DNA of 64,000 nt, taken from the NCBI GenBank assembly GCA_964291265.2, contig OZ219747.1, positions 416,001 to 480,000 on the forward strand. Reading direction: 5' to 3'. The position numbers and the translations under genes are program-made. Under the pieces are notes generated by a model. It was given only the letters and a program-made list of their open reading frames with translations. It searched no databases and was not told where the DNA came from. Position 1 is the stretch's first letter. Every line of letters begins with the position of its first letter. Source of the DNA: Alphaproteobacteria bacterium (GTDB lineage: Bacteria; Pseudomonadota; Alphaproteobacteria; SP197). Shown here piece after piece: positions 11,887 to 60,860 of the stretch.

Positions 11887-13106
11887 TAGTGTCATGTCAA
11901 CAATGATATGTCGTATATTTTGCGCTAGACTGTCCGTCCATTCGGGACGGAGGTCGGAGTATGAAACGCTACGTTGTGACCTTGGACGAGGCGGAACGGG
12001 AAGAACTTTCGGAGATCACGACCAAGGGCTCGCACCTGTCGCAAAAGGTGATCAACGCTCTGATCCTGCTCAACTGCGACGAGGGCGCGTTCAATGAACG
12101 CCAGGTGACCGGGGAGGTCATTGCCGGGATTCTGCGCATCAGCATGCGCAAGGTAGACCGGGTGAAGAAGCGTTTCGTGGAAGAGGGTCTGGAGGCGGCA
12201 TTGGGTGGCCGGCAGGGACGTCGTCCCAGCTCCGTGCGAAAAGCCGACGGCGCCTTCGAGGCGCGCTTGGTGGCCCTGAGTTGTGGCGAACCGCCCGAGG
12301 GTCACGCGCAATGGTCGTTGCGGCTGCTGGCCGACCGCGTTGTCGAGCTTGGCTACATCGATGCTGTGTCACACGAGACAGTGCGGCGTGTTCTAAAAAA
12401 AACTGCCTCAAGCCATGGCAGCGGGTCGGGTGGGTGATTCCTCCTCAAGGGAACGCCGACTTCGCCGCGGCGATGGAGAAGGTGCTCGATGTCTATCGCC
12501 GCCCCTATGATGCCGCCTTCCCCGTGGTCTGCATGGACGAAACGCCCCGACAACTGATCGGCGAGACACGGCAACCGATCGCCATGGCGCCAGGGCGGTC
12601 AGCGCGTGACGACGACGAGTATCGACGTTGCGGCACCTGCAACGTCTTCATGGCCACGGAACCCCTGGCCGGCAAGCGCATGACCAAGGTGACCAAGCGC
12701 AAGACCAAGATCGACTGGGCGCAGTTTCTGGCCGACATCGCCTCGCGCTACCAGGACGCCACCACCATCACCCTGGTGATGGACAACCTCAACACCCATC
12801 GGCCCGGCGCCCTCTACGAGGCCTACCCGCCGGACGAGGCCAAGGCCTTGTGGGACCGCTTCGAGTTCGTCTACACACCCAAGCACGGCAGTTGGCTGAA
12901 CGTGGCCGAGGTGGAACTCAACGTCATGATCCGCCAGTGCCTCAACCGCCGCATCGACTGCATCGAGGTGCTACGCCGGGAAGTCGCCGCCTGGCAGGCC
13001 TCCCGCGACCGCATCCAGGCCAAGGTGGATTGGCAGTTCACCACCGACGATGCCCGCGTGAAACTCAAACGGCTCTATCCGACATTTGACGAATGACAGG
13101 ACACTA
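11887..13106 (+). mobile_element. IS630 family insertion sequence
   Basis: Imperfect IRs TAGTGTCATGTCA / TAGTGTCCTGTCA, with CTAG at both junctions (11886-11889, 13104-13107). Confidence 0.9.
11961..13096 (+). CDS. IS630 transposase, two ORFs joined by a probable -1 frameshift
   Basis: HTH ORF 11961-12437 and DDE ORF (CMDE, VMDNLNTH, YTPKHGSWLNVAE) in the -1 frame; A8 run at 12395-12402. Confidence 0.88.
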
Positions 13107-13188
13107 GGAGTCGATGACACAGCCATCCTAGATTCCTTGAATGAAGGCAATGGTGCACAGATGAGCCAAGTTTTCATCACGGACATAT

Positions 13189-14783
13189 TCAGGCGGCAAG
13201 GGTCTGTCCCTCCCAGAGTTTGCTGACCTCGTCATCGAGCGAGTGGAGGATGCGTCCGAGCCTGGATGGCACCTTGTCATCGAAGGCCGCCGCCAGGGCA
13301 GGGCTGAGTGTCCGCCGGTGGATGCGGCAATAGGCAAGAGCGATCCTCTGCCCTCTTGCGTCAGACGATAGCGATGGGATGACGGTATCCTCTCGATGAG
13401 GCCCCGCAGGCGCAGGCGCCGCAGATCATAGGTGGCCTGACGTGAGCCATAGGTATCGGTCGACAGGAGGTCGGCAACGGCCTCTCTCATCTGGCGGTTG
13501 TTGAAGCCCATGGGGAGGAAGACATGCAGCAGGATGGCTGCGAGGACTGCCTGGATGCGTGGATCACCGAAGCGCAGGGCGGATACCCGACGTTCGTCGA
13601 CGACGACAGGTTGATGCAGGGCATCGAAGGTGGCTGCTCCGATCGGACAGTCGTGACTGATGCGTTGGACGTCGAGAAGACGTCGGGTGGCGTCGAAGCC
13701 GACCTCCTTGAGGTCATCGAGGTTGATCAGTCTGCGCTTGATGCCGAAGTCGTACGTGTTGTTGATCACCGTCTCCGTTCGCAGGGCACGGCCTTCCTTG
13801 AAGGACTGCTTGATACGCGAATGCCTGTCATCCACATGCAGCGACGGCTGCACGCCGTCGGTGATGACGCGGGTTCTGAACCGCGAGGTGGTCCGCCGTG
13901 TGATACGGCGGTTGAAGATCAACTGCACATGGTCAGGACGGCCGATGTCGAGGTTCTCGCGAATGATCTCCTCGAACAGGATCCGGCCGTGAAGAGGACG
14001 GTCAAACACCTGTGTGAGCGCACACTCCGCCTGGAGAATCGACAGGTCGTAGCGGATGCCCCTCATCGCGTCCTCGTCGGTGAAGGGATGGGGAAGCCAT
14101 GCCGTCCACTTGCGGAACAGCGCGTCGATCCGTGAGGCATCGATCTCCCCGGCCACGGCCTGCATGATCCGAGGATCGGCACAACTCAGGATGCCGTTGT
14201 CGAGAGCCTCGAAGGCCACCCCGCGCTTGCTCAGCTGACGCTTCAGGTATTCGTGACCATTGAGGCACAGCTTGGCGTTGTACGGGAAGTAGGAACAGAA
14301 CTTGATGAAGCAGGGACCAAAGTCGTCGTCCACGATGTAGATGTACCAGGCATTGACCATCGCCGTGCTGTGAACCAATTCGCAGGACGCCCTGCCCGTC
14401 GCCGGATCAACGCGCTTCTGCGTACGCAGGACACGGGCCTTCTCCTGGGCCTTGCCGACGTAAAGGACACCTTCACCGCCAGACCACAGGCGAAGATACT
14501 TCTGTGTCACATCATCCTTGCGCTCCCCCTTCCTGAAGCTGACAAGGTCGACACCCTGATCCCGGGCAAACCGCTCCAGGCGCGTCACAAAGCGCCGCGT
14601 CATCGGCGCCATCAGAGCCGATGACGGAACAGGATTGCCCCGAACCTCCCGAAAGAACCAGGCCGCGCCACCACCCGTCTGCAGCATTGGCACATAGGCG
14701 TTGAGATAAAGCCGGTCCAGACACTCAAGCTCCAGCGTCACGTGATTCTCAAGGACCTCGCCAACAGACCGTGCTATCGTCAT
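13189..14783 (-). pseudogene. Uncharacterised ~530-aa putative mobile-element protein with C-terminal winged HTH; 1-nt frameshift near 13350
   Basis: Long ORF from ATG 14783; motif RIKQSFKEGRALRTETVIN; wHTH YDLRRLRLRGLIERIP..HRYRLT; the alternative frame gives a natural-looking end RIALAYCRIH...QTLAA-stop at 13189. Confidence 0.65.
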
Positions 14784-15055
14784 CTTCTGGCCTCCGAACG
14801 ATGGGTTCCCCACATGGTTATCATAACCAACCCTCGGGCTGTATCAGGCGGGTCACCGCAGAGCGGAACAGCGGGCGGAGTCCTTTCCCTTCCGCGACGT
14901 CTCTCGTCGGTCTGAGGCATAGCCTCATTAGGAAAGGCATCGGACAACATGACACCCCTGCCGCAGCTCGCCGATCAGGGAGACCGCAACGCGCTTGACG
15001 GCGCGGGGCGGATTGTGTCATAATTGTAGCGTTCATCCCGAATGGAGACCGTGGC

Positions 15056-16027
15056 ATGGCCAGATTCAGAGGAACCGACGGCGACGACTGGCTCTACGGC
15101 AACTTGCTCTTCGGCGGCGCTGGCAACGACTGGCTCTTTGGCGGCGACGGCGACGACAAGCTTCGGGGCGGTGCTGGCAACGACATGATCTACGGCTTAA
15201 ACGGCAACGACAGGCTCCACGGCGGCGACGGCCACGACAGGCTCCACGGCGGCGACGGCGACGACGGGCTCCACGGCGGCGCTGGCCTCGACAGGCTCCA
15301 CGGCGACGCTGGCCACGACAGGCTCTACGGCCACGCTGGCGACGACTGGCTGGAAGGCGGAGCCGGCAACGACATGCTCTACGGCGGAGCCGGCAACGAC
15401 TGGCTCTTTGGCGGCGACGGCGACGACAAGCTTCGGGGCGGTGCTGGCAACGACAGGCTCGACGGCTTAAACGGCAACGACAGGCTCTCTGGCGGCGCTG
15501 GCAACGACTGCCTCTCTGGTGGCGCTGGCAACGACATACTCTACGGCGGAGCCGACAACGACTGCCTCTTTGGCGGCAACGGCGACGACAGGCTCTACGG
15601 CGGCGCTGGCGACGACAGCCTCTACGGCGACGGCGGCAACGACTGGCTCTCTGGCCGCGACGGTGGCGACACGCTCCGGGGCGACGCTGGCGACGACACG
15701 CTCCGGGGTGGCACTGGCGACGACACGCTCTATGGCGACGCTGGCGACGACACGCTCTACGGCGGGAAGGGCGACGACACGCTCCGGGGCGGCGCGGGCA
15801 ACGACCGCTTTTTCTTCGATGCCGAAAGCGACCATGACACCATTGCCGACTTCGGGAACGGCAGCGATACCATCGTGTTCAAACAGAAGTTGGCCTACGC
15901 CGACATCATCATCAAGGACCGCGACGCCGGGACCGTGATTACCGGGCCTAATGATGACTGGAGCATCACGCTTGAAGGCGTGACAGCGGCCGAGCTTACC
16001 GAAAGCGACTTTGAGTTTCTGGGATAG
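15056..16027 (+). CDS. RTX (hemolysin-type) calcium-binding repeat protein
   Basis: About 26 GGxGxDxLx nonapeptides, then D.I.DF..G.D.I and a type I secretion-like tail ending DFEFLG. Confidence 0.92.
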   Translation: MARFRGTDGDDWLYGNLLFGGAGNDWLFGGDGDDKLRGGAGNDMIYGLNGNDRLHGGDGHDRLHGGDGDDGLHGGAGLDRLHGDAGHDRLYGHAGDDWLEGGAGNDMLYGGAGNDWLFGGDGDDKLRGGAGNDRLDGLNGNDRLSGGAGNDCLSGGAGNDILYGGADNDCLFGGNGDDRLYGGAGDDSLYGDGGNDWLSGRDGGDTLRGDAGDDTLRGGTGDDTLYGDAGDDTLYGGKGDDTLRGGAGNDRFFFDAESDHDTIADFGNGSDTIVFKQKLAYADIIIKDRDAGTVITGPNDDWSITLEGVTAAELTESDFEFLG

Positions 16028-17408: not shown

Positions 17409-18276
17409 GGCTTCCGTCGTCCATCCGACGCACGCAATTGGCAAGGGCACGAGTGATAAGCCCTGCGGCCTTCCCGTGCAATGCGGCACGGAGTGACGAT
17501 GGACACCGAACGTCGGCGGCGTCATGGAAGACTTGTGCGGCGGGCGTCACCATGGAGACCGTGACGGGAGCCGACCGCCGTGAAGGATACTCTCGACTGC
17601 GCGATCGTCGGCGGGTGTACGCTTGCCCAGTGTCTTTCCACCGACAGTGTCATCCGTGTGCTCGTGGTGGAAACCGGAAGATGGGACCGCGGTCCCCCGA
17701 CTCACATTCCGCTGGGATGGGGCCGCGTCCTTCATGACTCCCTGCGCGGCTGGATGTATCTCCATGAACCCGTGCAAGGGTCTGGTGCCACGGCGTCGAG
17801 TGCGCCAGGAACAAGATCGTCGGAGGATCATGCTCGGTCAAGGCCATGGCATATGTGCGGAGAACCGCACGACTGCGACACCTGGGCGGCCGGCGATTCC
17901 GTCGACTGGGTCTGGATCAGCATGCGTCCCTGCTTCAAGCGCCAGGAGATCTGGGAGGAAGGCGCCGATGCCTGCCGGTGGCGCCCTCAACGTCCAGTTC
18001 TGCACGTACCGGGTTCCTCCTGTTGAGGCCTTGGGCGAGGCTGGCCGCGAAGCCCATCATGCCTGGACCGACGACTACAACCCCGCACACCAGGACGGTT
18101 TCGCTCGCCTGCAGATGACCATTCGCCCCGGCCGCCTGAGCGAGTGCCGCTTCGGCCGGCCTGCGCCCGGCACCCGGAAGGCGTGAACCGAGCGTGAACT
18201 CCCAGGCCAGGCGCATTCTCTGCGAGGGTGCGAGCGCCGTGGGCGTGGGGGCGCGCCAGGGCGAGCGGACACACAC

Positions 18277-20651
18277 CTTTCAACCAGACACTGTTGAATC
18301 CATCTTTTTCAGCATATCGAGTTCCTGCAGTTTCCGCATATTTCGGTGATGTTCGACGAAGGTGAGGAGGATTTCGTATCCCTGCCAGAGTTTCTCAGTC
18401 CCCGGCAGGGGTTGACGTTTTCTGGGAATGAAGCCCGCCAGGCGTGCGACGTCGACGGCGAAGGCTGCGATGGTCGGTTCGGGATCGGGAGGTCCACGCG
18501 GCGTGCGCTGTCGGCTGACCTTATAGATGTTCAGGACCGTGATCTCGTCGCGGTGGACGATGTGGCTTGCCGGGGTGTCTGGTGCCGAGCGTGCGAGGCG
18601 CTCGACGGTCATGACGCGGCATGCGGTGATGGCGTCGAAGGCCAGACACTTCCTCAGATCGTCGGCCTGGTTGAGGCGCCGGTCCTTGATCCGGGTGCCG
18701 ACCTTCAGGGCCTTGAAGTACTCTTCGATCCACCATCGCCTCTCGTAGAAGGAGACGGTCTTGAGGGCATCGTCTGCGGTGACGTCGCCTTCGGTGGTGA
18801 GCAGCATCCAGTCGAGAGGATCGCGGCCTGGCGGTGGGGCGGGTTCCGTGACCCGCACGGCCATCATGGAGAGCGGCGGCGTTGCCTGAGGCTTCTTGTC
18901 CGGCGGAGCCAGGTCGACCCTTGCCGCACGGACTTCGAGGCGTACGCCCTTGCGCTCCTTGCGACGACGCGGCCCTCCGCAGGCTGCGATGTCGATCTGC
19001 TTCGTTGCGATGCACGGCTCGTCCGCCATGTAGTCCCAAAGGTCCCGGCAGGCGCCCGTTGCGGTGACCACGCGGCGCCGTGTCGAGCGCCTGACGCGCA
19101 CCAGCAGACCGGCCTCGTGCTCCGTGCTCCGGGCCAGCAGGTCCCAGATGTCGCCTTCACGGTCACAGATCACCAACACCCTTGTCGAAGGACAGGCAGC
19201 GGCCAGTTCCACGGCCTTGTCGTACCCGTCGAGCCAGCGCCGGCTCTCCTTGTCGTCTGGCTCGTCCTTCTTCTGATCCGGCTTGAGACGGAAGTCGGCG
19301 TCGAGATGGAACAGGCCGAGGGATGAGCCGCCTTCGCTGAAGGCAACCCCGGCATGGGCCGCCATGCCAAGGGCGCCCGAGCCGCCGCCGCCGATGTCAA
19401 CAAGACCCTTGGTCGCCTCCAAGCCGTTGTCATTCAAGAACGTCGTGTCCTGGATGGCAAGAATCAGGCGCTGCGAACGGCAGCGTTCCACCATCGCTTC
19501 CTGGTGCCCCTCAAGGATATGCTCCATCGTCACCCTCGGATTCGACAACAAGCGGTAGGCCGCCTTCTGCTCCGCCTCGCCGGGGAAGATCACCGGCAGG
19601 ATCGCGCCGGGACGATCGTTCCACGCCCGGCCCATGGTGACAAGGCGCTCGCGGATGCGCACGTCACTGTGGCTGCTGCGGGCGTACTCCCTCATCGCCC
19701 AGTCGGTCCTGTCATCACCGACAAGGGGCGCCGCCTGGCCCATGACACGCTCAGGCTCCCGGCACAGCACGGCGCGCCAGTCAGGCGTCAGGGGCTTCAT
19801 CCATACGGACCGCTGCACGCCCGGGCCGGTGGCCCCGGGAGGTCGACCCGAGGTCATCTCCTCACAGCGCTCCCAGCCCGCCGCCCGGTAGCTCACGCCG
19901 CTGTGCTCGGGACCCACATACGTGTACGCCAGAACCGGCTTCACCCCGTACTTCTCGTGCCAGTCCGTAGCCAGACGCCGGCAGGCACAGGCCAGGGCAT
20001 GGGAGGCCAACTCCTTCACATCCACCGATGGAAGAATCAGGAAGCGATCATTGTTGACGATCTCGCCGAGGTGGGCGACACGGGCTCCCTGGGACCAGCC
20101 GATGAAGTCGTCGCGCGCCTTCTGGTGCCAACTCGCCGCACCAAACACCAGGCCGCCGAGGCGACCGTGGCGCGACGAGGTGATCCAGTAGCTCACCCGG
20201 GCTCCGGGTGCGCACGCCTCGCCTTCGGGATGCCAGGTCGCCATCATCGAACGGGCCAGGCGCTTGTCCTCGCCCTCGCCCACAGGCTCCAAGGTGACCT
20301 CTCCAAGGTCCTCCAGAGAACAGGCGAGGAGCTTGTCGGGATAGTCCCGCTCAAGGATGTCGGCGCCGGTGCCGAAGGCATCAGGCCTTGGTGCAGGAAG
20401 GGCGATGTCGAGCGACGCAGCAAGGTCAGGCAGGGCCGCACGCGCCGAGGCAAGACAGAGCTCGCCCTTCGCGTTGCGCCACTCCTCGCGCTCGCACAAT
20501 CCCCGCGCCAGAGACGAGCGTGTGCTGCCCTCGGCAGCCGACGCCGCCTTCAGCCAGTCAACCGTCGTCGCAGACAGATGTCGAAAGCCGATCCTCATGG
20601 GCCACTATGTAAGGCCTCATGAACGTCGAGTCAAGCCTGTCCCGTTGAAAG
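18277..20651 (-). mobile_element. IS4 family element A
   Basis: IRs CTTTCAACCAGACACTGTTGA / CTTTCAACGGGACAGGCTTGA; 9-bp TSD GACACACAC (18268-18276, 20652-20660). Confidence 0.92.
18280..20598 (-). CDS. IS4 (IS50-like) transposase with N-terminal DUF4338-like domain
   Basis: N-half RDDFIGWS, NNDRFLILP, LASH.L, Y...GVSYRAAGW; C-half AAYRLL, IQDTT, CDREGD, Y..RW.IEEYFKALK, LAGF...PG...LW.G. Confidence 0.9.
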   Translation of the reverse strand: MRIGFRHLSATTVDWLKAASAAEGSTRSSLARGLCEREEWRNAKGELCLASARAALPDLAASLDIALPAPRPDAFGTGADILERDYPDKLLACSLEDLGEVTLEPVGEGEDKRLARSMMATWHPEGEACAPGARVSYWITSSRHGRLGGLVFGAASWHQKARDDFIGWSQGARVAHLGEIVNNDRFLILPSVDVKELASHALACACRRLATDWHEKYGVKPVLAYTYVGPEHSGVSYRAAGWERCEEMTSGRPPGATGPGVQRSVWMKPLTPDWRAVLCREPERVMGQAAPLVGDDRTDWAMREYARSSHSDVRIRERLVTMGRAWNDRPGAILPVIFPGEAEQKAAYRLLSNPRVTMEHILEGHQEAMVERCRSQRLILAIQDTTFLNDNGLEATKGLVDIGGGGSGALGMAAHAGVAFSEGGSSLGLFHLDADFRLKPDQKKDEPDDKESRRWLDGYDKAVELAAACPSTRVLVICDREGDIWDLLARSTEHEAGLLVRVRRSTRRRVVTATGACRDLWDYMADEPCIATKQIDIAACGGPRRRKERKGVRLEVRAARVDLAPPDKKPQATPPLSMMAVRVTEPAPPPGRDPLDWMLLTTEGDVTADDALKTVSFYERRWWIEEYFKALKVGTRIKDRRLNQADDLRKCLAFDAITACRVMTVERLARSAPDTPASHIVHRDEITVLNIYKVSRQRTPRGPPDPEPTIAAFAVDVARLAGFIPRKRQPLPGTEKLWQGYEILLTFVEHHRNMRKLQELDMLKKMDSTVSG

Positions 20652-20924: not shown

Positions 20925-23282
20925 TCATAAATCGTGCAGGGCGCGGTCATGTCCTTCCGACGTCGGATCCAGATCGAGGGCCTCGAGCAGGCATTCATAG
21001 GCCAGGGCAGCGGTGGCCAGTCGCGGATAGCCATGCCACATCGTCTGGTTGCCCGGCGCCGGATCATGCTTGCGGTCCAGATACCCGCCGAGGATCGCCA
21101 CCAGCTTCACCGCCGCCCCCAGCGTGTCGGGCGGGTCCAGCCGGTATCGCCGGGCATAGTCGCCGAGGAAGCGGAGTTCCAGGTCCGAGAACAGGCAGTC
21201 GGGCTTCATCGTCGGCACATCCCGCCCGAGCAGGGTCATCAGGGCAAGACGCCAGGCGATCACGGCGTGGATGGTGATCTGCCGTTCCAGGCGGCAGGCC
21301 TTGCGCGTCGCCAGGTGCTCCACCCGGCAGCCGGACTTCAGCACCCGGAACCAGCATTCGATCCGCCAGCGCAGCGCGTACCAGCCGACGATCTCCTGGG
21401 CCGCTTCGGCGTGGTCCACAGGAAGGTCGGTCAACAGGAACCATTCCACCGGAGCTTCCCCGGCCGGCGGGGCCGTCTCGAGGAGATGCAGCGCGGTCAC
21501 GGCCACGGGCGCGGCATCGGGGCAGCCAGCGGTCGCCGGCAGCGTGGTCGACAACCAGCGCAACTCCAGCACCGCGTTCCGCCGGGCAGTGCGGCCGGGC
21601 TGCTTCTTGCGCCCCGAGGACTTCGGCCGGGCCGTCAGGCGGGGTATGTCGATCTGCATGGTGCCGCGGCAGGCAGACGTACGTAGTCGGGTGAACAGCT
21701 TCGCAGCCCCGCGCTTGAGGACCCGGTCATGTCGAGCCCGCACCAGCATCGACAGACGGCGATGCTGCCGGCACCGGTCGAACAGTTCGAAGAAGTCCGC
21801 TTCCCGGTCCATCACGCACACGACCTTCACCCCGGTCGTCCGGGCCGCGAGGTCCGCGATGTCGTCGAGACCGTCGAGCCAGCGCTGCGACTTGCGCCGG
21901 GACATCTCGACATCCTCGCCCGAACCGGTCTTTGCCCGGGGGCGGGGAGGAGCGTCGAAGGCAAGACGCGCCACCCCCAGCGGCAGGCCTTCGCCGCTGA
22001 CAACGTAGCTGGCGTGCAGGTGCAGGCCCAGGGTCTGCGAGGCCGTCTGGTTCGTGCCGATGATGCCCAGACCGTCGCAGCCCGGACGGGTCGCGAAGTT
22101 CAGGTCCGTCCCGTCCTGAATGCACAACGCCACCCGCTGGCCGCACATCCGCTGCACCGTTCGTTGACGGTGCGGCGCCAGGATGTTCGCCGGGGTCACC
22201 GCCGACGTCTCCGGCTGATCCAGGAACCGATAATAGGCCCGGACACCGGCAGGATCCGGGCGCGCCAGACCGCTGTAGGACGACATCGGACTCTCTCCCT
22301 GTCTTCGTGCAATCTCCACCAGGCGCGCACTCAGACGCCGGTCGCCGATCGGCGCTCCCCCGAACTCGTGGTGCGCCCACGCCGAGGCGTCCAGACCCTC
22401 CCCCGGGGACAGGGCCGGCATCGGCTCCGCCACCCCCAGCTTGTGCCGCCAGTCCCGGTCCAGAACGTACATGTACACGGCCTTGACGCTCTCGGCCATC
22501 TCGCGCGCGCGGTCCTGACGGCCTCGGCCCCGGGTGAACCCCACGAGCTGCCAGTTCGCCGCCCGCAGGCTCGCACCGTCGCGCGTCGGGTCGACATAGG
22601 TCTCGACCAGCCATGGCAGGAACCCGTAGCGCTGCGCAACATCGGCGCCCAGGCGAGACAGGCACATCGACAGCGTCTTCGACGCAAGGTTCGCAACCGG
22701 CACCCGGATCAGAAACCGGCTCATCGACAGCACCCGGTGTCGCTCCGCACGACGCCGGTCGGCATCCCAGCCGATCCAGGCATCCCGATCCGCCACCTTC
22801 AGCGCCGCTGCGGCAAAGCCGAAACCGCCGAGACAGCCGTGAGCGGAATCCACCAGATAGCGCAGCTGATGACCGGCCAGAATGGGAGCGCCGAGAAAGT
22901 GCTCCCGCGCCATCAGTTCGTTCCAGAGCGCCCGTTCGGCATCCGTGCGCACCAGCAGGATCCGCAGACCCTGGATCGCCGCCACGCTCGCCGGCACATC
23001 ACGCGGCTTCTCCACCGCCTCGCCGAGCCGGCGGGGCGTTGCCCGACGCCGCTGACCGGAGGGCTCCGGCAAGCCCTCGATCCTGCCCTGCGATGCCAGC
23101 TGCTTCAGGGCCACGACACAGCTCGATACCCGCTCGCGTCCCCGTGCGTCCCGCAGGCCGAAGTGCCGGCACACTTCCAGCGCCAGGCGGTTTTGACTAC
23201 TATCGCCGCTCTCGGTGACGATCGACTGCAGGCGATCGAGCTGGTCCTCGAGGACGCGTTTGATCGGAATGTGTGCTTCCAT
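20925..23282 (-). CDS. IS4 (IS50-like) transposase with N-terminal DUF4338-like domain
   Basis: RDAWIGWD, SRFLI, NLAS, ETYVD...GASLRAANW...G.TRGRGR; IQDGTDL, MDREAD, Y.LRWRIE..FRVLK. Confidence 0.9.
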   Translation of the reverse strand: MEAHIPIKRVLEDQLDRLQSIVTESGDSSQNRLALEVCRHFGLRDARGRERVSSCVVALKQLASQGRIEGLPEPSGQRRRATPRRLGEAVEKPRDVPASVAAIQGLRILLVRTDAERALWNELMAREHFLGAPILAGHQLRYLVDSAHGCLGGFGFAAAALKVADRDAWIGWDADRRRAERHRVLSMSRFLIRVPVANLASKTLSMCLSRLGADVAQRYGFLPWLVETYVDPTRDGASLRAANWQLVGFTRGRGRQDRAREMAESVKAVYMYVLDRDWRHKLGVAEPMPALSPGEGLDASAWAHHEFGGAPIGDRRLSARLVEIARRQGESPMSSYSGLARPDPAGVRAYYRFLDQPETSAVTPANILAPHRQRTVQRMCGQRVALCIQDGTDLNFATRPGCDGLGIIGTNQTASQTLGLHLHASYVVSGEGLPLGVARLAFDAPPRPRAKTGSGEDVEMSRRKSQRWLDGLDDIADLAARTTGVKVVCVMDREADFFELFDRCRQHRRLSMLVRARHDRVLKRGAAKLFTRLRTSACRGTMQIDIPRLTARPKSSGRKKQPGRTARRNAVLELRWLSTTLPATAGCPDAAPVAVTALHLLETAPPAGEAPVEWFLLTDLPVDHAEAAQEIVGWYALRWRIECWFRVLKSGCRVEHLATRKACRLERQITIHAVIAWRLALMTLLGRDVPTMKPDCLFSDLELRFLGDYARRYRLDPPDTLGAAVKLVAILGGYLDRKHDPAPGNQTMWHGYPRLATAALAYECLLEALDLDPTSEGHDRALHDL

Positions 23283-31165: not shown

Positions 31166-32305
31166 CGGCATCACCCACCGGAGAGGATCACGTCACGGCC
31201 GGTCCCAAGGACCGCCTTCGCGGCGGCGGAAACCTGATGATCGACGGCTTCCATGCCTTCCGGAACCGTGGACCGGGAGGTGAACTCCGTTCCTTCCCTA
31301 CGACCATGCCGTCCGAGTCGGACATGGAGACGCTCGCCATCTCTTCGACATCAGCTACGACCATGAGTGCACCATGAAGGTGCCGCCCTTCGAGACACCG
31401 CTGCAGACACCCGTGCGGACCATTCCGGGAGTCCTCGGTCTCGTCGGTCCGAGGCCCTCCGACATCAACTCGCAAGGGTGGCTTCGATCGCTGCCGCGGG
31501 AGCCGGCACATCGCGACCGCTACCCGGTGTACCGCGAGGGACTCGAAGCCCGCGAGCGCCATCAACCCTTCGAAAACCCGGGACGGATCCCGGCTTCACG
31601 AAGGGCGGGACGGCGATGGACGAGTTCAGTCGGCGGCTCGGGAAGCTCCGAGATCGCGGTCTGTCCGCCGAGAGTCGAGACCCTGACCGGCAGTCAGGAC
31701 ATTGCCAGGGTCCTGCGGCTCTTCGAGACTCCCGAGCACTCGGGCTTATCACGACTCGATGATGGTCGAACTGGCCAACCGGCGGCCCATGCTCTCCGTC
31801 GCCGCCGAACGAGGACACCGCATCGGCGACGGGGAGCGTCCCCTTGATCGACAATCGAATCGAGGATGCCGACGGCGTATCGCGGTGGACGGACAGCGGC
31901 AACCACGGAGATGTCCCGGTGGTCATGGAGTGCGCCTCAACAAGCAGCCGGGCCCATGGCGTCATTGAACGGTACTCTGATCTCGACCATCGTCTCGTGA
32001 CAGCGTGAACCGGTAGTCGAACCCCTTGCCGCAGACGCCCGATGCAGGGCTGGAGACAGCATCGTCGGCCGAGACCGGCGAGGCGTGTCGCAGCCTCGAT
32101 GGCCACGGCCGGGTCGGCCTGAAGGATGAGGGCGGTTCGTTCCGGCGCATGGCGCGGGCGCACTTGAGCGTCGTTTCCACGTGGAAGACCTGGAACAGGG
32201 AATCGAAGTCGCTTACCGATCGGCCGCGCCATGGCCTGCGGCGCACGGGAAGAGTCCTGCAACGGCGCGGCGCTCAACGTCAGAACCGGAGGGTCCTTCG
32301 CCGTC

Positions 32306-33902: not shown

Positions 33903-34764
33903 CGTTGGATCTGGTTCCTCCCTGCCGCACCATCGATCCGCCGGAGACGCAGGGGATTCGTAGGGCGGGAACGGGCGCGTGTCCACCCGATCTTCAGAGA
34001 ATTGCCGTCAGCCCCCGGGGAGGATCGCCCGAAAGACGCAGGGGATGAGCCGTTCGGGCCCGGATTCGTGGAGTATCAGGGGATTGTGCGAGTGAAGCGG
34101 CTCTCTGTCTCGACGGGGCTCTCGTCGATGATCGAGATGATGGCATCGATCTTGTTCCTGGTGATGATCGGCGGTGGGATGGAATTCAAGGGGACGCAGG
34201 CCCTCCATGAGGCAGACGCCGCTCCAAGCGCTGCCGTCGAAAGGGATTCTCGTCCTCGAAGATCCGGATGTTCCGCGGAGCAGCAGCGGACGCCACATCC
34301 GAACAGGTGCTCGACGGGCTCCATCACGCCACCGATCGACGCTCAGCCGCCGGGAAACCCCTTGGCGATGGTCATCATGCCGGGCACGACGCCGCAGGGA
34401 CCGGCGGCAAGCACCGTTGATCGCCGTCCATGATCAGAGAAGGCGCCGGTTCGCTGGCAGGTGTCGCGTAATCTCCACCAACGGCAGAGCGGCGGATCCT
34501 CGCCCCGATGCGGGATTTTCTTCTCCACATGGCGGGCGCAGATGAAATCCCCCGTCTTCGCCCGGGAGACCGAAGCGGTCGTGTGCAGGCACGTGGCTGA
34601 CGGTCTGCATGAGGAATCAGGGTGCCGCCCGAAGTTCAAGCGGCGCGGGAGTGACGGCTCAGGAGGCCATCCGCATCCCGCGTGATCGGCCACCTCAACC
34701 GGGTTCCGGCTTTCACGCCTCGCCGTCTCGGGATCGGCACACAGCGGCTCGAACTCGCCCGCAA

Positions 34765-35005: not shown

Positions 35006-36672
35006 GGGTGTGAGTCTAGTATGGCAGTTCTGTTATGGTCTTAAGTTATGGACTTAGTTCCATTGTTTCATCTCATGCGGCCAGCGCCGGGGTGTGATGT
35101 GGGCTGATGTTGTCGTTGGCTGGTGCGTTGTCGCCCTCGATCATGGCGGTCCACGCGCTTTCGAAGCGGCCTGATTTGAGCAGGGCGCGGAAGGTGAGAA
35201 CGGCTTGTCCGCCGACGATGCGCCAGCGCATGCCGGAGCGCTTCATGCGCTGTGTGACGAGGGTCTTGTTGGCTGCCTCGACAAGTCCCGAGCCGATGGC
35301 GATCCCCTGTTGCTTCAGCGCGTGGTAGCGCATGCGGTGGCGATGCTTGCGGAAGAAGGCCAGTTCCCTGTCGATGTCGGCTCGGCCCGCCGGCTTGGCG
35401 GTGTCGCGAAGGTGGCGCAGCGCCCGGATCACCCTGTCGATGCCGCGGGGGTCGTGACGCAGGATCTCGCGGTACTTCTCGAACCAGTGGGGCGCCGCTG
35501 CATGGTCGGCCACCACGCGCAGATGCTCGCAGGCATGCCAGAAGTCGATCACCTCGGTTTCGGGTTCAAGACCAGAGAGGAAGGTCCAGTTGTCGGCGGC
35601 GGCGTCGGCGATGGCGCTGATCCTGATCTCGGGACGCTCGCGCCTGATATGCGCGACCTCGCTTGCCAGCTGCACCTTCAGCGTGCACTTGCCGCGCTCG
35701 GGCATGCGGCCGAGATAGACGGTCTTCAGGCGCTCACCGTCGGCATCGTGGAAGGAGACTGTGCCACAGGCCGCCTCGCGCCAGCAGGCCTCGCTACGGC
35801 CGTCCTCGCCGGCCCGCAGCGCCACCATGACGCCGTCGAGCGAGACCGAGGCGGTGACCGCGTCCTGCGGGATGTCCTCGGCTTCCCGGATGCCATCCAG
35901 GGCCTGCGGACCGAGACGTTCCCAACGCTCCTGCATGGTCAGGCTCAAGCGCTGCAAGGTGCTCACAGACGGCGTCATGGCGCCGAGCTTGCCGAAGAAC
36001 GCCTCCGCTTCCCGCGCCGTGCAGTGGACCATCATCATCAGCCCAAGCTGAGCCGCCGGCCGTGTCAGGTCGTCGTCGACGAGGCCCAGGCTTTCGTCCA
36101 CCGGCATCAGCGACCGGCAGTGCCCGCCGGTGCGATAGCGCGCACGCCGAAAGGTCACCGGGCCGAGCGAGGTCATGATCGTCTTCGGCGTCGGCGCCAC
36201 ACGGAACCAGTTCTGCCCGTCCCGTTCGATCCGGGGCGCACCGTCGTCCCGGGCCTCGGCACAGGCACCCAGGATCTCGCAACCAAGCGCGTGCACGCTC
36301 TCAAGCACCCGCCGCTCCGCTTCCTCGAAGGCCTCGGCAGAGCGCTCTGAACCAAGCTGTCGATGACACACCGCGGTCACTTGCGTGACCGCTTCGACAA
36401 CCCGAGGCGGCAAGCCGAGAAGATCGATGGACGCGGAAGGCCGAAGCTGTGACACTGACATGGGAGCGCTCCTGATGTTGTGGTTTCAAGCCAGCATCAT
36501 ATCGCATCTTGCGGTGCGGAGCGTTCCCGCATCCACCGCCAAGCCCTGCTGTCGTGACAAAATCCGGTCCTGAAACGGGCAATTGTCACGAAACCCCGTT
36601 TTCGCCGTTCCATCGCGAACGCACAACCGTGATAAATCAATGACTTGGCTTCGCCATACGAGAACTACACCC
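35006..36672 (-). mobile_element. ISKra4/ISLre2-like IS, copy A (1667 bp)
   Basis: IRs GGGTGTGAGTCTAGTATGGC / GGGTGTAGTTCTCGTATGGC; 7-bp TSD CCTGCGT. Confidence 0.9.
35073..36461 (-). CDS. ISKra4/ISLre2-like (Mutator-type DDE) transposase
   Basis: SLDGVM, IADAA, DFWHACEHL, IGSG.VEAANK...RMKRSGMRW. Confidence 0.88.
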   Translation of the reverse strand: MSVSQLRPSASIDLLGLPPRVVEAVTQVTAVCHRQLGSERSAEAFEEAERRVLESVHALGCEILGACAEARDDGAPRIERDGQNWFRVAPTPKTIMTSLGPVTFRRARYRTGGHCRSLMPVDESLGLVDDDLTRPAAQLGLMMMVHCTAREAEAFFGKLGAMTPSVSTLQRLSLTMQERWERLGPQALDGIREAEDIPQDAVTASVSLDGVMVALRAGEDGRSEACWREAACGTVSFHDADGERLKTVYLGRMPERGKCTLKVQLASEVAHIRRERPEIRISAIADAAADNWTFLSGLEPETEVIDFWHACEHLRVVADHAAAPHWFEKYREILRHDPRGIDRVIRALRHLRDTAKPAGRADIDRELAFFRKHRHRMRYHALKQQGIAIGSGLVEAANKTLVTQRMKRSGMRWRIVGGQAVLTFRALLKSGRFESAWTAMIEGDNAPANDNISPHHTPALAA

Positions 36673-38531
36673 CCTGCGTTGCATCCGGACTGCGTGCGGC
36701 GGGAGGCGTCGACGATGCGGCGCTGGCGCTATGGTGAGCCCGTGAGCAGCGGAGGGCGGACCGTCTGTCGCTAGTCCGAAGTTCCAGAACCGATCAGACG
36801 TATCGTTATGAATGTATTGACGTTTGAAAAAATCGGGTGTGTCGCTACTGGGAACGCTGCAGGCGTATGCCGAGGTAGTCCAGGGCCTTTTTCTGGAGCG
36901 GCGTGGGCCGCGTGGTGACCTGGAAGGGTTGGGCGCCCGCAAGGCGGGGCGCCACGGTGTTGCGGGTGATGGTCGCGAGATCATCGAGGAGGGTGCGGAA
37001 ACTGTGCACCGGATCACCCCCGGGCGTCCTCTTCGTTGCCGCCTTGGCCCGGGCGCTCGCCGAGACTTCTGCCGGCGCCACGACGGACGGCCGCCGGGCC
37101 TCGGCGCCTTCGGCATCCTCGTCGTCGAACAGCATGGGCTTCAGTTTCTGGCGCATGTGCCATTCCACGTAGTAGGCGAGCATGCACAGGAAGACATGGG
37201 CGCGGACCCGGGGTTCGGTGCGGTGGTAGACGGGACGGACCTTCAGATCCACGGTCTTCAGGCTGCGGAAGGCCCGTTCCACCGAACTCAACCGCTTGTA
37301 GGCGCGCACCGTGCCGGGACCGTCGAGTGCGCTTTGCGGCAGGCTGGTGCGGATCACGCAGAGGCCGTCGAGCCTGGCCTCGGCGGCGATGGCAGCCTCA
37401 TCGCGCCCATAGGTGAAGACACCGTCGTCGTCGATGGACCACGTGAAGTGCTTCGCCATCTTGTACTTGCCGATGACCTTGCCGACCCGCTCCCCGATCT
37501 TGTCGGCACCCTTGAGACGGCGCTTGTCGCGCCGTGTCGCTGCTGCGATCGGTTCAAGCAGGGCCTCGGTGGCCTCGAGCAGTTCCTGGCGCTTGCGGGC
37601 CCGGTCCTCGGCCAGCAGGGGGTTGCGGCAGACCATGAGGCGTTCGCCGGGATACGCATCGCTGGTGATCTCCACCAGGTCCCTCTCGTCGAAGAGCGAC
37701 ATCTCGACGTCGCCGGCCTCCACAAGGGCGCGGATGGCCGGTCCCCTCAAGGCGCTGATCCAGTCCAGGCCCGCAGGCTTCACCTCCTCGCGTATGCGCG
37801 CCTCGGTCAGCATCCCCCGGTCTCCCACCAGCACCACCTTCGCCAGGGAGAAGCGCTCCTGCAGCGTGGTGATCTGTGATGCCACCGTCCCGGGGTCCGC
37901 CGTGTTGCCGGGGAACACTTCCACCGACACTGGACAGCCGTCCCGATCGCACAGAAGGCCGAACTCGATCTGCAGCTTGCCCTTCTTGCCATCCCGGGAA
38001 TGACCCCTCCTGGCCAGGGGACACGCTCTCCCCTCCATCCATACCGAGGTCAGGTCATAGAGCACCAGGCAGCCCTCTTCGAGGCGCCGCTTCGCCAGGG
38101 ACCGCTCGATCCTCTCCTGACGCTCCAGGAGCCAGTCCATGGCGCCATAGAGGGCGTCCTCGTCCATCTCCGCATCGAGGACCTCGCCCAGGGTGCTGAC
38201 CGCCGTGGCCTCGGCCAGCCCCCTGGCCGTGGCCAGCTTCGAGGCGGGCTCGAGGATGCGTGCCACGATCATGGCCAGGACCTGATCGCGCTCAGGCGAG
38301 GGCTTCGGGTCGATCAACCTGTCCAGTCCCAGCTTCTTCAGGGTTCCCAGCACTGCGGCGACATGCCCATGGGGTAGGGAGCGGACGATGTCGAAGGCGT
38401 CGTCACGACCGACGAGGGGTTCGTTCTTCAAGAACCGCCGCAGGGTCTCGACCTTTTCCATGGGCCAGGAGGAGAGATTGGCGATGGTGCGCTTCTTGAC
38501 CTTGCCGTTCTCGCGCCATCCCTCTCGCAGG

Positions 38532-40198
38532 GGGTGTGAGTCTAGTATGGCAGTTATGTTATGGTCTTAAGTTATGGACTTAGTTCCATTGTTTTATCTC
38601 ATGCGGCCAGCGCCTGGGTGTGATGTGGGCTGATGTTGTCGTTGGCTGGTGCGTTGTCGCCCTCGATCATGGCGGTCCACGCGCTTTCGAAGCGGCCTGA
38701 TTTGAGCAGGGCGCGGAAGGTGAGAACGGCTTGTCCGCCGACGATGCGCCAGCGCATGCCGGAGCGCTTCATGCGCTGTGTGACGAGGGTCTTGTTGGCT
38801 GCCTCGACAAGTCCCGAGCCGATGGCGATCCCCTGTTGCTTCAGTGCGTGGTAGCGCATGCGGTGGCGATGCTTGCGGAAGAAGGCCAGTTCCCTGTCGA
38901 TGTCGGCTCGGCCCGCCGGCTTGGCGGTGTCGCGAAGGTGGCGCAGCGCCCGGATCACCCTGTCGATGCCGCGGGGGTCGTGACGCAGGATCTCGCGGTA
39001 CTTCTCGAACCAGTGGGGCGCCGCTGCATGGTCGGCCACCACGCGCAGATGCTCGCAGGCATGCCAGAAGTCGATCACCTCGGTTTCGGGTTCAAGACCA
39101 GAGAGGAAGGTCCAGTTGTCGGCGGCGGCGTCGGCGATGGCGCTGATCCTGATCTCGGGACGCTTGCGCCTGATATGCGCGACCTCGCTTGCCAGCTGCG
39201 CCTTCAGCGTGCACTTGCCGCGCTCGGGCATACGGCCGAGATAGACGGTCTTCAGGCGCTCACCGTCGGCATCGTGGAAGGAGACTGTGCCACAGGCCGC
39301 CTCGCGCCAGCAGGCCTCGCTACGGCCGTCCTCGCCGGCCCGCAGCGCCACCATGACGCCGTCGAGCGAGACCGAGGCGGTGACCGCGTCCTGCGGAATG
39401 TCCTCGGCTTCCCGGATGCCATCCAGGGCCTGCGGGCCGAGACGTTCCCAACGCTCCTGCATGGTCAGGCTCAAGCGCTGCAAGGTGCTCACAGACGGCG
39501 TCATGGCGCCGAGCTTGCCGAAGAACGCCTCCGCTTCCCGCGCCGTGCAGTGGACCATCATCATCAGCCCAAGCTGAGCCGCCGGCCGTGTCAGGTAGTC
39601 GTCGACGAGGCCCAGGCTTTCGTCCACCGGCATCAGCGACCGGCAGTGCCCGCCGGTGCGATAGCGCGCACGCCGAAAGGTCACCGGGCCGAGCGAGGTC
39701 ATGATCGTCTTCGGCGTCGGCGCCACACGGAACCAGTTCTGCCCGTCCCGTTCGATCCGCGGCGCACCGTCGTCCCGGGCCTCGGCACAGGCACCCAGGA
39801 TCTCGCAGCCAAGCGCGTGCACGCTCTCAAGCACCCGCCGCTCCGCTTCCTCGAAGGCCTCGGCAGAGCACTCTGAACCGAGCTGTCGATGACACACCGC
39901 GGTCACTTGCGTGACCGCCTCGACAACCCGAGGCGGCAAGCCGGAAAGATCGATGGACGCGGAAGGCCGAAGCTGTGACACTGACATGGGAGCGCTCCTG
40001 ATGTTGTGGTTTCAAGCTAGCATCATATCGCATCTTGCGGTGCGGAGCGTTCCCGCATCCACCGCCAAGCCCTGCTGTCGTGACAAAATCCGGTCCTGAA
40101 ACGGGCAATTGTCACGAAACCCCGTTTTCGCCGTTCCATCGCGAACGCACAACCGTGATAAATCAATGACTTGGCTTCGCCATACGAGAACTACACCC
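38532..40198 (-). mobile_element. ISKra4/ISLre2-like IS, copy B (1667 bp)
   Basis: About 99% identical to copy A (offset 3526); 8-bp TSD CTCGCAGG (38524-38531, 40199-40206). Confidence 0.92.
38599..39987 (-). CDS. ISKra4/ISLre2-like transposase
   Basis: 462 aa, near-identical to 35073-36461. Confidence 0.88.
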   Translation of the reverse strand: MSVSQLRPSASIDLSGLPPRVVEAVTQVTAVCHRQLGSECSAEAFEEAERRVLESVHALGCEILGACAEARDDGAPRIERDGQNWFRVAPTPKTIMTSLGPVTFRRARYRTGGHCRSLMPVDESLGLVDDYLTRPAAQLGLMMMVHCTAREAEAFFGKLGAMTPSVSTLQRLSLTMQERWERLGPQALDGIREAEDIPQDAVTASVSLDGVMVALRAGEDGRSEACWREAACGTVSFHDADGERLKTVYLGRMPERGKCTLKAQLASEVAHIRRKRPEIRISAIADAAADNWTFLSGLEPETEVIDFWHACEHLRVVADHAAAPHWFEKYREILRHDPRGIDRVIRALRHLRDTAKPAGRADIDRELAFFRKHRHRMRYHALKQQGIAIGSGLVEAANKTLVTQRMKRSGMRWRIVGGQAVLTFRALLKSGRFESAWTAMIEGDNAPANDNISPHHTQALAA

Positions 40199-40405
40199 CT
40201 CGCAGGAGGACGGCGGGGGGTGAGTTACGGTTGGGGACGATGTCTACGTACATGGCAACGTATATGGGGGCGTAAGCCCACCGTGTCAAGGGAAAACTTC
40301 GCCGTTACATGGGAACATTCTCGCGCCATCATCGCGCTGTTTTGCCAACACAATCAACCGGTTATCGTGACTCTGCCGCTGAAATCGTCCGGAACTTCGG
40401 GCTAG

Positions 40406-40794
40406 TCCGAAGTTCCAGCACCGTTCAGACGTATCATCATGAATGTATTGACGTTTGATGGAATCGCGTGTGGCGCTACTGGGAACGCTAGAGGCGCACG
40501 CCGAGGTGGTTCAGGGCCCTTTTTATGGAGCGGCGTGGGCCGCGTGGTGACCTGGAAGGGCCGCAGGGTTTCGACGTTCTCCATGGGCCAGGAGGAGAGA
40601 CTGGTGGCGGGGGGCTCATGCGGTTGGGGACGATGTCCACGTACATGGCAACGTACATGGGGGCAAAAGCCTCCTGTGTCAACAGGGTGTTTCACCGTTA
40701 CATGGGAACTTCTGCATGTTGTCTCTGTACGCTTTTATCAGTAAGATCAACTAGTTGATGTGGTTATAGCGCTGAAATCGTCCGGAACTTCGGG
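40406..40794 (-). mobile_element. Non-autonomous, internally deleted IS1634 derivative (MITE-like, 389 bp)
   Basis: Both IS1634 ends retained; fused N-terminal (MYVDIVPNR..SSWPMENVETLR) and C-terminal (PFQVTTRPTPL) scraps; flanked by CTAG. Confidence 0.88.
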
Positions 40795-59628: not shown

Positions 59629-60860
59629 ATGAGACATGTACGCCATCCCCGGATGGAGCTGAGCGAGGTGCGGATCGAGGACATCCAGATCAACCGGAGG
59701 TCCCGGTACGCCATTCCGGCGTTGTTGCTGGGTCTTCAGCATCTCTATGGCGATGGGGAGACCCGCGCCCGTCTGTTCGCGCTTCTCGACGAGCATATGC
59801 ATGTCGGCGTCGACCGCACAGTAGGGCGACCGGGCATGGAGATGTGGCGGATCCTTGTGATGGGCGTGGTGATGCAGGGGCTGGGCTGCGGTGTCGAACA
59901 CCTTCACGAACTGGTGAACGAGCACAGGACACTTCGCCGGTTTCTCGGTCACGAGGCGTTTTCGGATGAGAGGTACGAGTACCAGACGGTGGTGGACAAC
60001 GTCTGTCTGATGCGCCCCGAGTTGTTGGCGCGGGTGGGACAGATGATGGTGGAGAGCGGCCATGTTGTGGCGAGAAAGAAAGCCTGGCGAGCTGTTGCGC
60101 GGGCGCGGTGATTCCTTCGTGGTGGAGACGGACGTTCACGATCCCACGGATGTGAACCTTCTCATGGACGCGAGGCGCTTGCCTGCTCCGGGAGACGGGC
60201 CGTGCGGCGCATGAGCATGATGTGAAGGGTTGGCGCCGGTGGAGCCATCTGACGATGTCGATGAAGGGTCAGTTCAACCAGGTGCGCTCGACCCGCCGCG
60301 CCCGTGCGGACCATGTCGAGGCGTATCGTTGAGACCTGCCGCGGTCTTGTGGAGCTGGCGCAGGTGACGCATCGGGACCTGGCCTTGCGTGGTGCGCCGT
60401 CCTGCAAGCTGGTGACTACCTGATCCCTGTCTGGGTCATGCGAGGCGTCGGATCGACCAAGTGGAGTGCCGCCCTCTCAACGGCGAGACGATCCCGCATG
60501 ACGAGAAGGTGTTCCCGATCTTCGAGAGCCACACGCATTGGATCTCGAAGGGCAAGGCGGGGACGCAAGTGGAACTCGAGGTTCCCAGGCGCTCTTTCCC
60601 GACCTGCGCTGGTGCAGCTTCGACCGCGGCTTCCGCAGCCCTGACAACAGGCCTCGTCTCGACGCGCTTCTCGAACACAACGTGCTGCCACCTCGACACG
60701 TGTCATCGCTGGAAGGGGTGTTTCCCGGCAGGCCCTGGTTCATGGTCGCAAACCACGCGCGAGACGGACAGGAACACCCGCCGACAGTCGTCATCGCGGG
60801 CCGAACGCATGGGCCGTGGTGTTCGGGCGGACCTTGACTCGCGACGAGCGAGCCCCTAAG
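59629..60860 (+). pseudogene. Degraded transposase (IS5-like/ISNCY type)
   Basis: IPALL.GLQ.LY, GRPGM.MW.I, DSFVVETDVH.PTD, GETIPHDEKVF.IFE.HT.WISKGKAG..VEL, SFDRGF; frameshifts and deletions; right boundary approximate. Confidence 0.78.

Follow-up and report, generated by a model that had tools for sequence, protein, structure and literature searches.

The closest described parallel to a process acting on the dinucleotide TpA comes from Bigelowiella natans, where integrated viral DNA undergoes a TpA hypermutation that the accessible part of the report gives as more than 1000-fold, made up almost only of transitions and restricted to foreign regions (bioRxiv 10.64898/2026.01.13.699255). In bacterial genomes, no dinucleotide is depleted more than TpA, and the shortage is greater at high GC; the available portion of a broad survey calls the cause mysterious (PMC11282364). 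GC-ward genome erosion is likewise on record: ‘Streptomyces philanthi’ is described, in the accessible sections, as being at an early stage of it, with many pseudogenes and with alkA, mug, nei, tag and recA broken (PMC8092579). Repair-defect signatures, as far as the accessible sections go, include a preference for GpTpN (A with a 3′ C) upon loss of mismatch repair (MMR), context-free T>G changes upon loss of mutT and Escherichia coli hotspots named as GATC, CCWGG and runs (PMC10625568, PMC13250602). Here, we follow up a 64,000-nucleotide stretch (the window; G000:C2:416001-480000) from the 4.83-Mb genome of an uncultured alphaproteobacterium (G000; 64.8% GC), for which a sequence-only reading had proposed a TpA-specific, strand-symmetric excess of substitutions in unconstrained DNA, starting from a pair of insertion sequence (IS) copies, A and B. 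The proposal is borne out by the pseudogenes of this genome and not by the IS pair: it is right in a moderate form of about 3-4-fold, as a context-dependent substitution bias, i.e. a known kind of process.

The evidence comes from genes that have died in G000. Intact genes of three members of the same genus (1.6 Mb of the 4.1-Mb genome G011 and 0.4 Mb each of G004 and G013) were aligned to G000, whose genes were called with a purpose-written codon-score script; only 0-fold sites were scored, intact genes were subtracted as a baseline and three-way polarisation covers about 0.4 Mb. The 693 single-copy pairs included 27 strict pseudogenes and 595 intact genes, and a broader set held 35 pseudogenes. 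A first set of 85 pseudogenes (ratio 1.69) was dropped because paralogues and compensated indels contaminated it. In the strict set, TA>CA/TG changes affected 69 of 376 sites (183 per 1000) as compared to 445 of 5815 other A/T sites (76.5 per 1000), and TA>GA/TC changes 13 of 376 (34.6 per 1000) as compared to 118 of 5815 (20.3 per 1000). TA>AA/TT changes were not raised (5/376, 13.3 per 1000, vs. 73/5815, 12.6 per 1000), and CA>TA was depleted (15.3 vs. 46.3 per 1000; ratio 0.26). Relative to intact genes, in which TpA and other A/T sites changed at 41 and 43 per 1000, the excess ratio is 2.86 (confidence interval [CI] 2.1-3.7). The broad set gave 103 changes at 491 TpA sites and 832 at 7661 other A/T sites (Fisher p=5e-10; ratio 2.59, 1.9-3.4), which corresponds to a hazard ratio of 4.3 (3.3-6.2) once corrected for saturation. 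Transitions (TA>TG/CA) account for 81 of these 103 changes and TA>TC/GA for 16, 79% being A>G, and TG>TA is reduced to 0.31-fold. The excess is spread across the genome, 28 of the 35 pseudogenes changing faster at TpA than at their remaining A/T sites, and it goes beyond a general AT>GC bias, given that other A/T sites serve as the reference.

Bacterial pseudogenes are expected to decay towards A+T. Those of G000 decay towards G+C (AT>GC over GC>AT of 2.33 in the broad set), with TpA as the hottest site: aligned TpA fell from 313 to 253 and GC rose from 65.4 to 66.3%. At the protein level, 88 of 205 Tyr codons (43%) but only 76 of 378 Phe codons (20%) were lost in the broad set (p=9e-9). Tyr, replaced chiefly by Cys and His (Tyr>Cys 38, Tyr>His 24), is also the most-lost residue of the strict set (46%), followed by Lys (31%), Phe (19%) and Trp (11%). 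Intact genes changed in the same sense from G011 to G000, with 250 Tyr lost and 122 gained (Phe 358 and 288), as part of a general GC-ward amino-acid shift; the net drift is towards Arg, Ala, Gly, Val, Cys and His. By strand, TpA was lost at 44 of 194 coding and 25 of 182 template sites. As a side observation, G000 erodes faster than G011: over the 1.6 Mb compared, it has 27 pseudogenes and G011 has 3 (the reciprocal search for pseudogenes in the relative passed 3 of 687). The G000 casualties include urease subunits, a GAPDH copy, a glutamine-synthetase-family gene and hydantoinase B.

Four examples come from the window itself. In that of a GMC oxidoreductase (17580..18277, plus strand), compared with 10 orthologues, 6 of 25 TpA sites changed (five dinucleotides destroyed) as against 35 of 307 other A/T sites, without any TpA gain. 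A metallo-beta-lactamase-fold gene with 11 frameshifts (31197..31808, plus strand), compared pairwise with G011, lost eight TpA, gained three and kept one. A class-V aminotransferase gene with 12 frameshifts (31801..32261, minus strand) lost five, gained three and kept one. A fragment with five frameshifts (34169..34448) lost both of its TpA. Contigs from runs X2 and X3 are letter-identical to this fragment, which speaks against the base-calling errors that the sequence-only reading had considered; copy-private IS alleles were neither confirmed nor denied. Run X2 may be the source sample, and the read checks gave contigs only.

The rates depend on the neighbouring base in an ordered manner. 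A>G is in excess by 134 after T, 69 after C, 49 after A and 30 after G (T>C>A>G), and the values for G>A (T 8, C 22, A 16, G 36) run in the mirror order G>C>A>T; A>C is also highest after T (T 29, A 23, G 10, C 9). The 3′ base matters as well (A>G excess of C 67, G 69, A 35, T 34), but the 5′ T effect (155) is larger. Forward/reverse ratios of 17 (T), 3.1 (C), 3.1 (A) and 0.8 (G) parallel the synonymous third-position G/A ratios of 31, 4.2, 2.8 and 1.8, which come from sites other than those that gave the pseudogene rates. When random sequence was evolved in simulation under the pseudogene rates, with the effects of the 3′ base included, it reached observed/expected (o/e) values of 0.21 for TA, 1.39 for GA/TC, 1.72 for AT, 1.23 for CG and 0.89 for CC/GG, and the ten dinucleotide ratios correlated with those of the genome at r=0.96 (0.94 without TA); a context-free control left all ratios near 1 (TA 1.07). 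Neighbour-dependent rates in unconstrained DNA accordingly go together with a correct prediction of much of the standing composition.

We regard a genome-wide bias at the T-A step, acting in replication or repair, as the probable cause of TpA loss, though with limited assurance. The unconstrained DNA of G000 drifts to G+C; in it, an A that follows a T is replaced by G or C at about 3-4 times the rate of other adenines, and changes back into TpA are about three times rarer. The mirror order, together with the lack of a TA>AA excess, points to a step at which a mismatch is decided in favour of either A or G/C. The bias probably lies in how A:C/T:G and A:G mismatches at the T-A step are formed or resolved. 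This could be achieved either by a polymerase whose misinsertion disfavours A after T or by excision of A (or T) from the mismatch, whichever strand is new. The bias would act genome-wide rather than being aimed at mobile DNA, and Tyr codons above all would lose their TpA once a gene dies. That it originates in mutation or repair, and not in fixation, is our inference.

Judged by sequence, candidate enzymes for such a step are present, i.e. MutY, MutM, UDG-family and HhH-GPD glycosylases and ImuB-DnaE2: G000 carries mutS and mutL (both above cut-off and without internal stops), mutY, mutM, four HhH-GPD and four UDG-family matches, dinB, imuB-dnaE2 and an intact TadA-like gene. Its best mutT-like match (82 bits) lies under the cut-off, as in all five genomes searched. 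MutY turns A:G into C:G in a context-sensitive manner, and early work covered in the accessible part of one account found A:C not to be recognised (PMC3584444); MutY would hence account for the transversions more readily than for the prevailing transitions. The 26 pseudogene orthologues scanned within the 1.6 Mb of G011 include no repair gene. DnaE2, matched in 15 of 23 genomes, does not co-vary with TpA depletion, with G009 and G006 lacking a match over cut-off yet being TpA-depleted. Separately, a partial match to the cytidine/deoxycytidylate-deaminase family (47 bits, no called gene) lies at G000:C2:3614450-3614680, and four relatives have full matches of 99-102 bits each, which are putative orthologues.

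How, then, does this pattern compare with known systems? Vsr, the very-short-patch T:G repair enzyme, works in a strand-blind manner, raises T>C, lowers C>T and shapes the abundance of CTAG. G000 may share such a strand-blind resolution of mismatches, and CTAG is its rarest tetramer (Markov o/e 0.23), joined by CTAA/TTAG (o/e 0.43) as the rarest tetramers beyond dinucleotide effects. However, Vsr was found in 14 of 22 other genus genomes and not in G000, and TpA is lost across contexts, transversions included. With Bigelowiella natans, the pattern shares strand-symmetric, GC-ward TpA>TpG/CpA changes; it differs from what the accessible part of that report describes in being 3-4-fold, in including TA>TC/GA, in its TG>TA deficit and in being strongest in single-copy metabolic pseudogenes. 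Targeted hypermutation of the Bigelowiella type, or one resembling repeat-induced point mutation (RIP), does not match ratios of 2.6-2.9 in single-copy pseudogenes and 1.8-1.9 in repeat families; nor do 16 TA>TC/GA among 103 changes and a hazard ratio of 4.3 agree with near-exclusive transitions at rates raised by orders of magnitude. What we describe is a moderate bias with candidate enzymes only and not a new defence system.

‘Streptomyces philanthi’ has many pseudogenes, GC enrichment of relaxed DNA and intact mutM and mutY in common with G000. It is, however, an actinobacterium, and the accessible part of its description contains no dinucleotide analysis, whereas G000 is an IS-rich alphaproteobacterium with a TpA context. 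The repair-defect signatures, as far as their accessible sections go, resemble ours in comprising context-dependent A:T>G:C and A:T>C:G changes, but here a 5′ T has the largest effect, with mutS/L, mutY and mutM all intact. Neither an MMR-deficient mutator (mutS and mutL are unbroken in sequence) nor a mutT-deficient one (A>G far exceeds A>C) would describe G000 well. The survey of bacterial TpA depletion concerns standing composition in its available portion, as opposed to the substitution flux measured here in dead genes. In the main texts of a mostly open-access literature, we found no report of a TpA substitution excess in bacterial pseudogenes.

Repeats with another copy at ≥90% identity make up about 20% of G000 and provide a second class of relaxed DNA, here a set of 223 blocks with 60,385 sites and 1946 polymorphisms, the singletons of which were polarised by majority. 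A net loss of TpA from IS copies was rejected: the singletons comprise 35 losses and 63 gains, gains also outnumber losses in a strict-unanimity pileup (1044 changes in 606,744 site-copies), and repeats with in-genome outgroups gave 35 gains and 8 losses. When counted per opportunity within strata of change type and coding effect, losses nevertheless exceed expectation (62 vs. 34.3 expected; 1.81, CI 1.43-2.33) and gains fall short of it (90 vs. 192.8 expected; 0.47, CI 0.37-0.60). Copy-private IS changes show the same (loss O/E 1.93, 1.2-2.7; gain O/E 0.51), with a loss O/E of 2.6 at synonymous and non-coding sites. An E. coli control treated by the same O/E method (seven strains, ~50 kb, 1662 polymorphisms) was flat (loss 0.93, gain 0.77). 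These gains can be reconciled with the losses in pseudogenes by an equilibrium view: neutral DNA is near a low-TpA equilibrium at which gains balance or exceed losses, meaning that net loss is seen only where selection had kept TpA high, and TpA held by Tyr codons drains after gene death. In four-species parsimony over 176 kb, gains of TpA likewise outnumbered losses on each of the four branches when all sites were taken together. A rule confining TA>GA to TAY (14/14 in repeats) failed in pseudogenes, where 6 of 13 were in TAR.

The IS pair from which the proposal had started illustrates why such families are difficult to polarise. Copy A (35006..36673, minus strand; 16 TpA) encodes a transposase in a 462-aa open reading frame (ORF; 35073-36461), for which ISKra4-like is the best score, below cut-off, for this ~1667-bp IS. 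Copy B (38532..40199, minus strand; 21 TpA, the count that had been estimated) is 98.9% identical to A and sits in the end region of an IS1634 element. Other IS1634 copies match up to 38531, and contigs of runs X3 and X4 join 38523 to 40199, revealing the empty site. The two copies do differ at 18 of 1668 sites, including five TpA present only in B, exactly at the positions reported. Yet the directional loss read from them does not stand, as a 13-copy alignment resolves the five into one loss, two gains in B and two shared polymorphisms. At site 35030, only copy A carries C where 10 copies have A, a genuine loss of TpA private to it. By majority rule, the TpA alleles at 38595 in B (35069 in A; 2/13 copies) and at 39232 (35706 in A; private to B, 1/13) are gains; 36071 (7 C : 6 A) and 36492 (5 C : 6 T) are unpolarised. 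Moreover, the 5:0 asymmetry of A and B is the most lopsided among 55 pairwise comparisons of 11 copies. IS copies 1-3% apart are recombinant mosaics in all four families studied, with up to 69% incompatible site pairs and a four-gamete incompatibility of 0.10-0.32 for sites less than 50 bp apart, which climbs to 0.50-0.69 for those more than 500 bp apart. A pairwise difference is therefore not decay since insertion, and the flagged evidence is a polarisation artefact; such mosaicism would imply heavy gene conversion among the copies. The further suggestion that IS function and TA/CTAG target sites are being eroded finds no backing: all 11 family-A copies of at least 1600 bp keep a frame of at least 470 aa, all eight IS1634 copies of at least 1650 bp keep the full 550-aa transposase frame, family-A target duplications are ~8 bp and neither TA nor CTAG, and repeats gain TpA on balance.

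Several observations weigh against placing the bias in replication or repair, or limit what it explains. Polarity rests mostly on one outgroup, G011. Three pseudogenes of G004 show 7 of 34 TA>TG, but four of G011 are without excess (2/65) and one of G013 has 0/8. Intergenic TpA shows no faster loss along the species branches (ratios 0.45-1.0), although conservation of functional TpA may play a part in this. For TC>TA, IS copies and 4-fold sites display a strong reduction that pseudogenes do not clearly share (0.85, CI 0.18-2.9). The simulation overshoots GC (0.71 vs. 0.65) and AT (1.72 vs. 1.33) and places CA/TG on the wrong side of 1, and no repair-gene difference names the enzyme. Isolated IS singletons give a loss of 1.58 (CI 0.65-3.0) and a gain of 0.68 (0.46-0.92), and IS singletons are nearly GC-neutral (1.11) as opposed to 2.3 GC-ward in pseudogenes, a contrast that suggests a fixation component and is confounded by the majority polarisation of singletons.

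Such a component is at the heart of a rival in which mutation is ordinary and heteroduplexes are resolved towards G/C during recombination, most strongly at T-A steps (GC-biased gene conversion). The distance-dependent incompatibility in all four IS families would be in keeping with it, mirror-image rates are what an allele-level bias predicts, and the gap between GC-ward ratios of singletons and pseudogenes fits as well. So does a gain deficit that deepens with age, from 0.68 in isolated singletons and 0.51 in singletons to 0.26-0.31 in pseudogenes and 0.21 on the species branch. Nevertheless, copy-private changes at synonymous and non-coding sites already show a 2.6-fold TpA effect, polarising by majority within mosaic families would by itself shrink the bias of singletons, and single-copy pseudogenes have no near paralogue for conversion. 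We thus see this explanation as unlikely, if worth keeping in view.

The deepening deficit would also suit weak selection against TpA in DNA or RNA, operating even in pseudogenes and IS copies through UpA cleavage, spurious -10 boxes or DNA mechanics. TpA being the most depleted dinucleotide across >15,000 bacterial genomes is usually put down to RNA/DNA stability in the accessible part of the survey (PMC11282364). We find this quite improbable for G000, whose ~20% repeats, 27 vs. 3 pseudogenes relative to G011 and net Tyr loss in intact genes are signs of weak selection; in addition, TpA is lost on both strands, and TA>AA/TT, another way of losing TpA, occurs at no higher rate than elsewhere.

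Slightly less plausible again is deamination of the A in TpA on single-stranded DNA, be it by an adenine deaminase or chemically, as proposed for Bigelowiella. EndoV and Mpg remove hypoxanthine, and neither was found in any of the 23 genus genomes; together with the intact TadA-like gene, the 79% share of A>G and a slight coding-strand excess (more Tyr>Cys than Tyr>His), this is what deamination would lead one to expect. The motif of TadA-type deamination is TACG, however, and no preference for it was found (16/63 vs. 19/86 in other TACN). Deamination also predicts neither the 3-fold lower TG>TA nor the raised TA>TC, and the strand difference cannot be separated from an effect of the base two positions upstream. 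An artefact of assembly error, alignment or mis-polarisation is very improbable, since, for all that Logan contigs could not confirm two copy-private alleles and the pseudogenes are indel-rich and mostly compared to a single outgroup, only broken genes show the excess and the 595 intact ones lack it, 10 orthologues give the polarity of GMC, the fragment at 34169-34448 is matched exactly in two runs and the E. coli control is flat.

As for standing composition, TpA o/e in G000 amounts to 0.34 over the whole genome and to 0.33 in short stretches of intergenic DNA, and drops to 0.20 at 4-fold codon junctions, with in-frame Tyr codons holding 69% of genic TpA. Three congeners (400 kb each) are at 0.37-0.38, and 7 of 10 genus genomes (6-13 kb each) at 0.26-0.37; the three others, with 69-72% GC, reach 0.43-0.58. 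Across 18 unrelated loci at 62-68% GC the median is 0.49, and 4-fold junctions of six comparison groups range from 0.33 to 0.47, with two single loci lower (0.04, 0.07). These low values belong to loci L144 and L143, respectively, from unrelated high-GC metagenome-assembled genomes (one titled Nitriliruptorales), whose TpA o/e is 0.27 and 0.19. A clade-specific TpA trait, suggested by one locus (0.23-0.32 vs. 0.62-0.68), weakened once more sequence was added. CA>TA is in deficit at 4-fold sites elsewhere, too (Cupriavidus 0.44, Phenylobacterium 0.26, Hyphomonas 0.71), and the TC>TA deficit at such sites is deeper in the genus (0.11-0.26 vs. 0.51-0.83 elsewhere, small counts). The synonymous G/A rank order by 5′ base also has T highest in Phenylobacterium, Hyphomonas and Cupriavidus loci, which suggests that the bias is not peculiar to the source genus; G000 seems to present, in pronounced form, a property shared more widely among high-GC Proteobacteria.

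Near-universal TpA depletion is an open question that is usually answered by selection on RNA. It is tempting, if speculative and on present evidence doubtful, to view TpA as the bacterial counterpart of vertebrate CpG: a strand-blind replication/repair bias in high-GC Proteobacteria might alone account for the scarcity of TpA, the dinucleotide signature and the virtual lack of CTA, GTA, ATA and TTA codons, as well as for part of the high GC and the bleeding of Tyr when selection weakens. If so, an eroding genome supplies the neutral DNA in which the bias shows. Pseudogene rates reproduce the dinucleotide signature of the genome and much of its synonymous codon bias. According to one account, codon bias in large part reflects background substitution patterns (PMC2891978). 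Such a bias would explain the shortage of TA without selection on RNA or protein, and the cause of TpA depletion becomes directly testable through pseudogene spectra in other high-GC bacteria.

Returning to the window, six motifs had been taken to show Asp, Ser or Cys in place of Tyr. Homologues of all six genes do carry a Tyr codon, and the direction is clear in five. The IS630 motif (12605..12622, plus strand) has one Tyr>Asp change (TAC>GAC; Tyr in 5/5 homologues), and the GMC position is Tyr in 10/10 orthologues. The IS1634 transposase (36845..38461, minus strand; intact frame) has Tyr>Cys at 37352-37369, with Tyr in 20 and Cys in 3 of 23 copies. The IS4-family motif (19423..19440, minus strand) reads Asp, and its 22 matches comprise 14 Tyr, 7 Asp and 1 His. 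The fragment bearing DVHDPTD (60131..60151, plus strand) also has Asp, as compared to Tyr in 4/4 paralogues at 67-78%; it had been labelled IS5-like, but its best score, below cut-off, is to ISNCY. In the 13-kb gene (13797..13835, minus strand), Tyr/Asp and Tyr/Ser polymorphisms segregate among six copies (Tyr in 3/6 and 2/6), and direction is not established. The IS1634-derived miniature inverted-repeat transposable element (40401..40604), said to lack several TpA with at least one gain, has lost three, gained two and kept four relative to the IS end.

Other features of the window deserve brief mention. An Rfam scan of it returned one tRNA only. The 537-aa ORF at 13128-14813 (minus strand) has no Pfam or NCBIfam match, is multi-copy in G000 and is mostly broken in 10 of 22 congeners; it is probably an unclassified transposase. 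An ORF at 15056-16027 (plus strand) is composed of RTX calcium-binding nonapeptide repeats, and tandem IS4/Tn5-type transposases at 18280-20598 and 20925-23282 (minus strand) both have an N-terminal DruA (Druantia) domain. Elsewhere in G000, the most abundant large repeat is a 5.3-kb element of about 30 copies (G000:C1:51890-57217), which carries what by eye is an IS21-like transposase and helper pair, plus ORFs of 297 and 55 aa.

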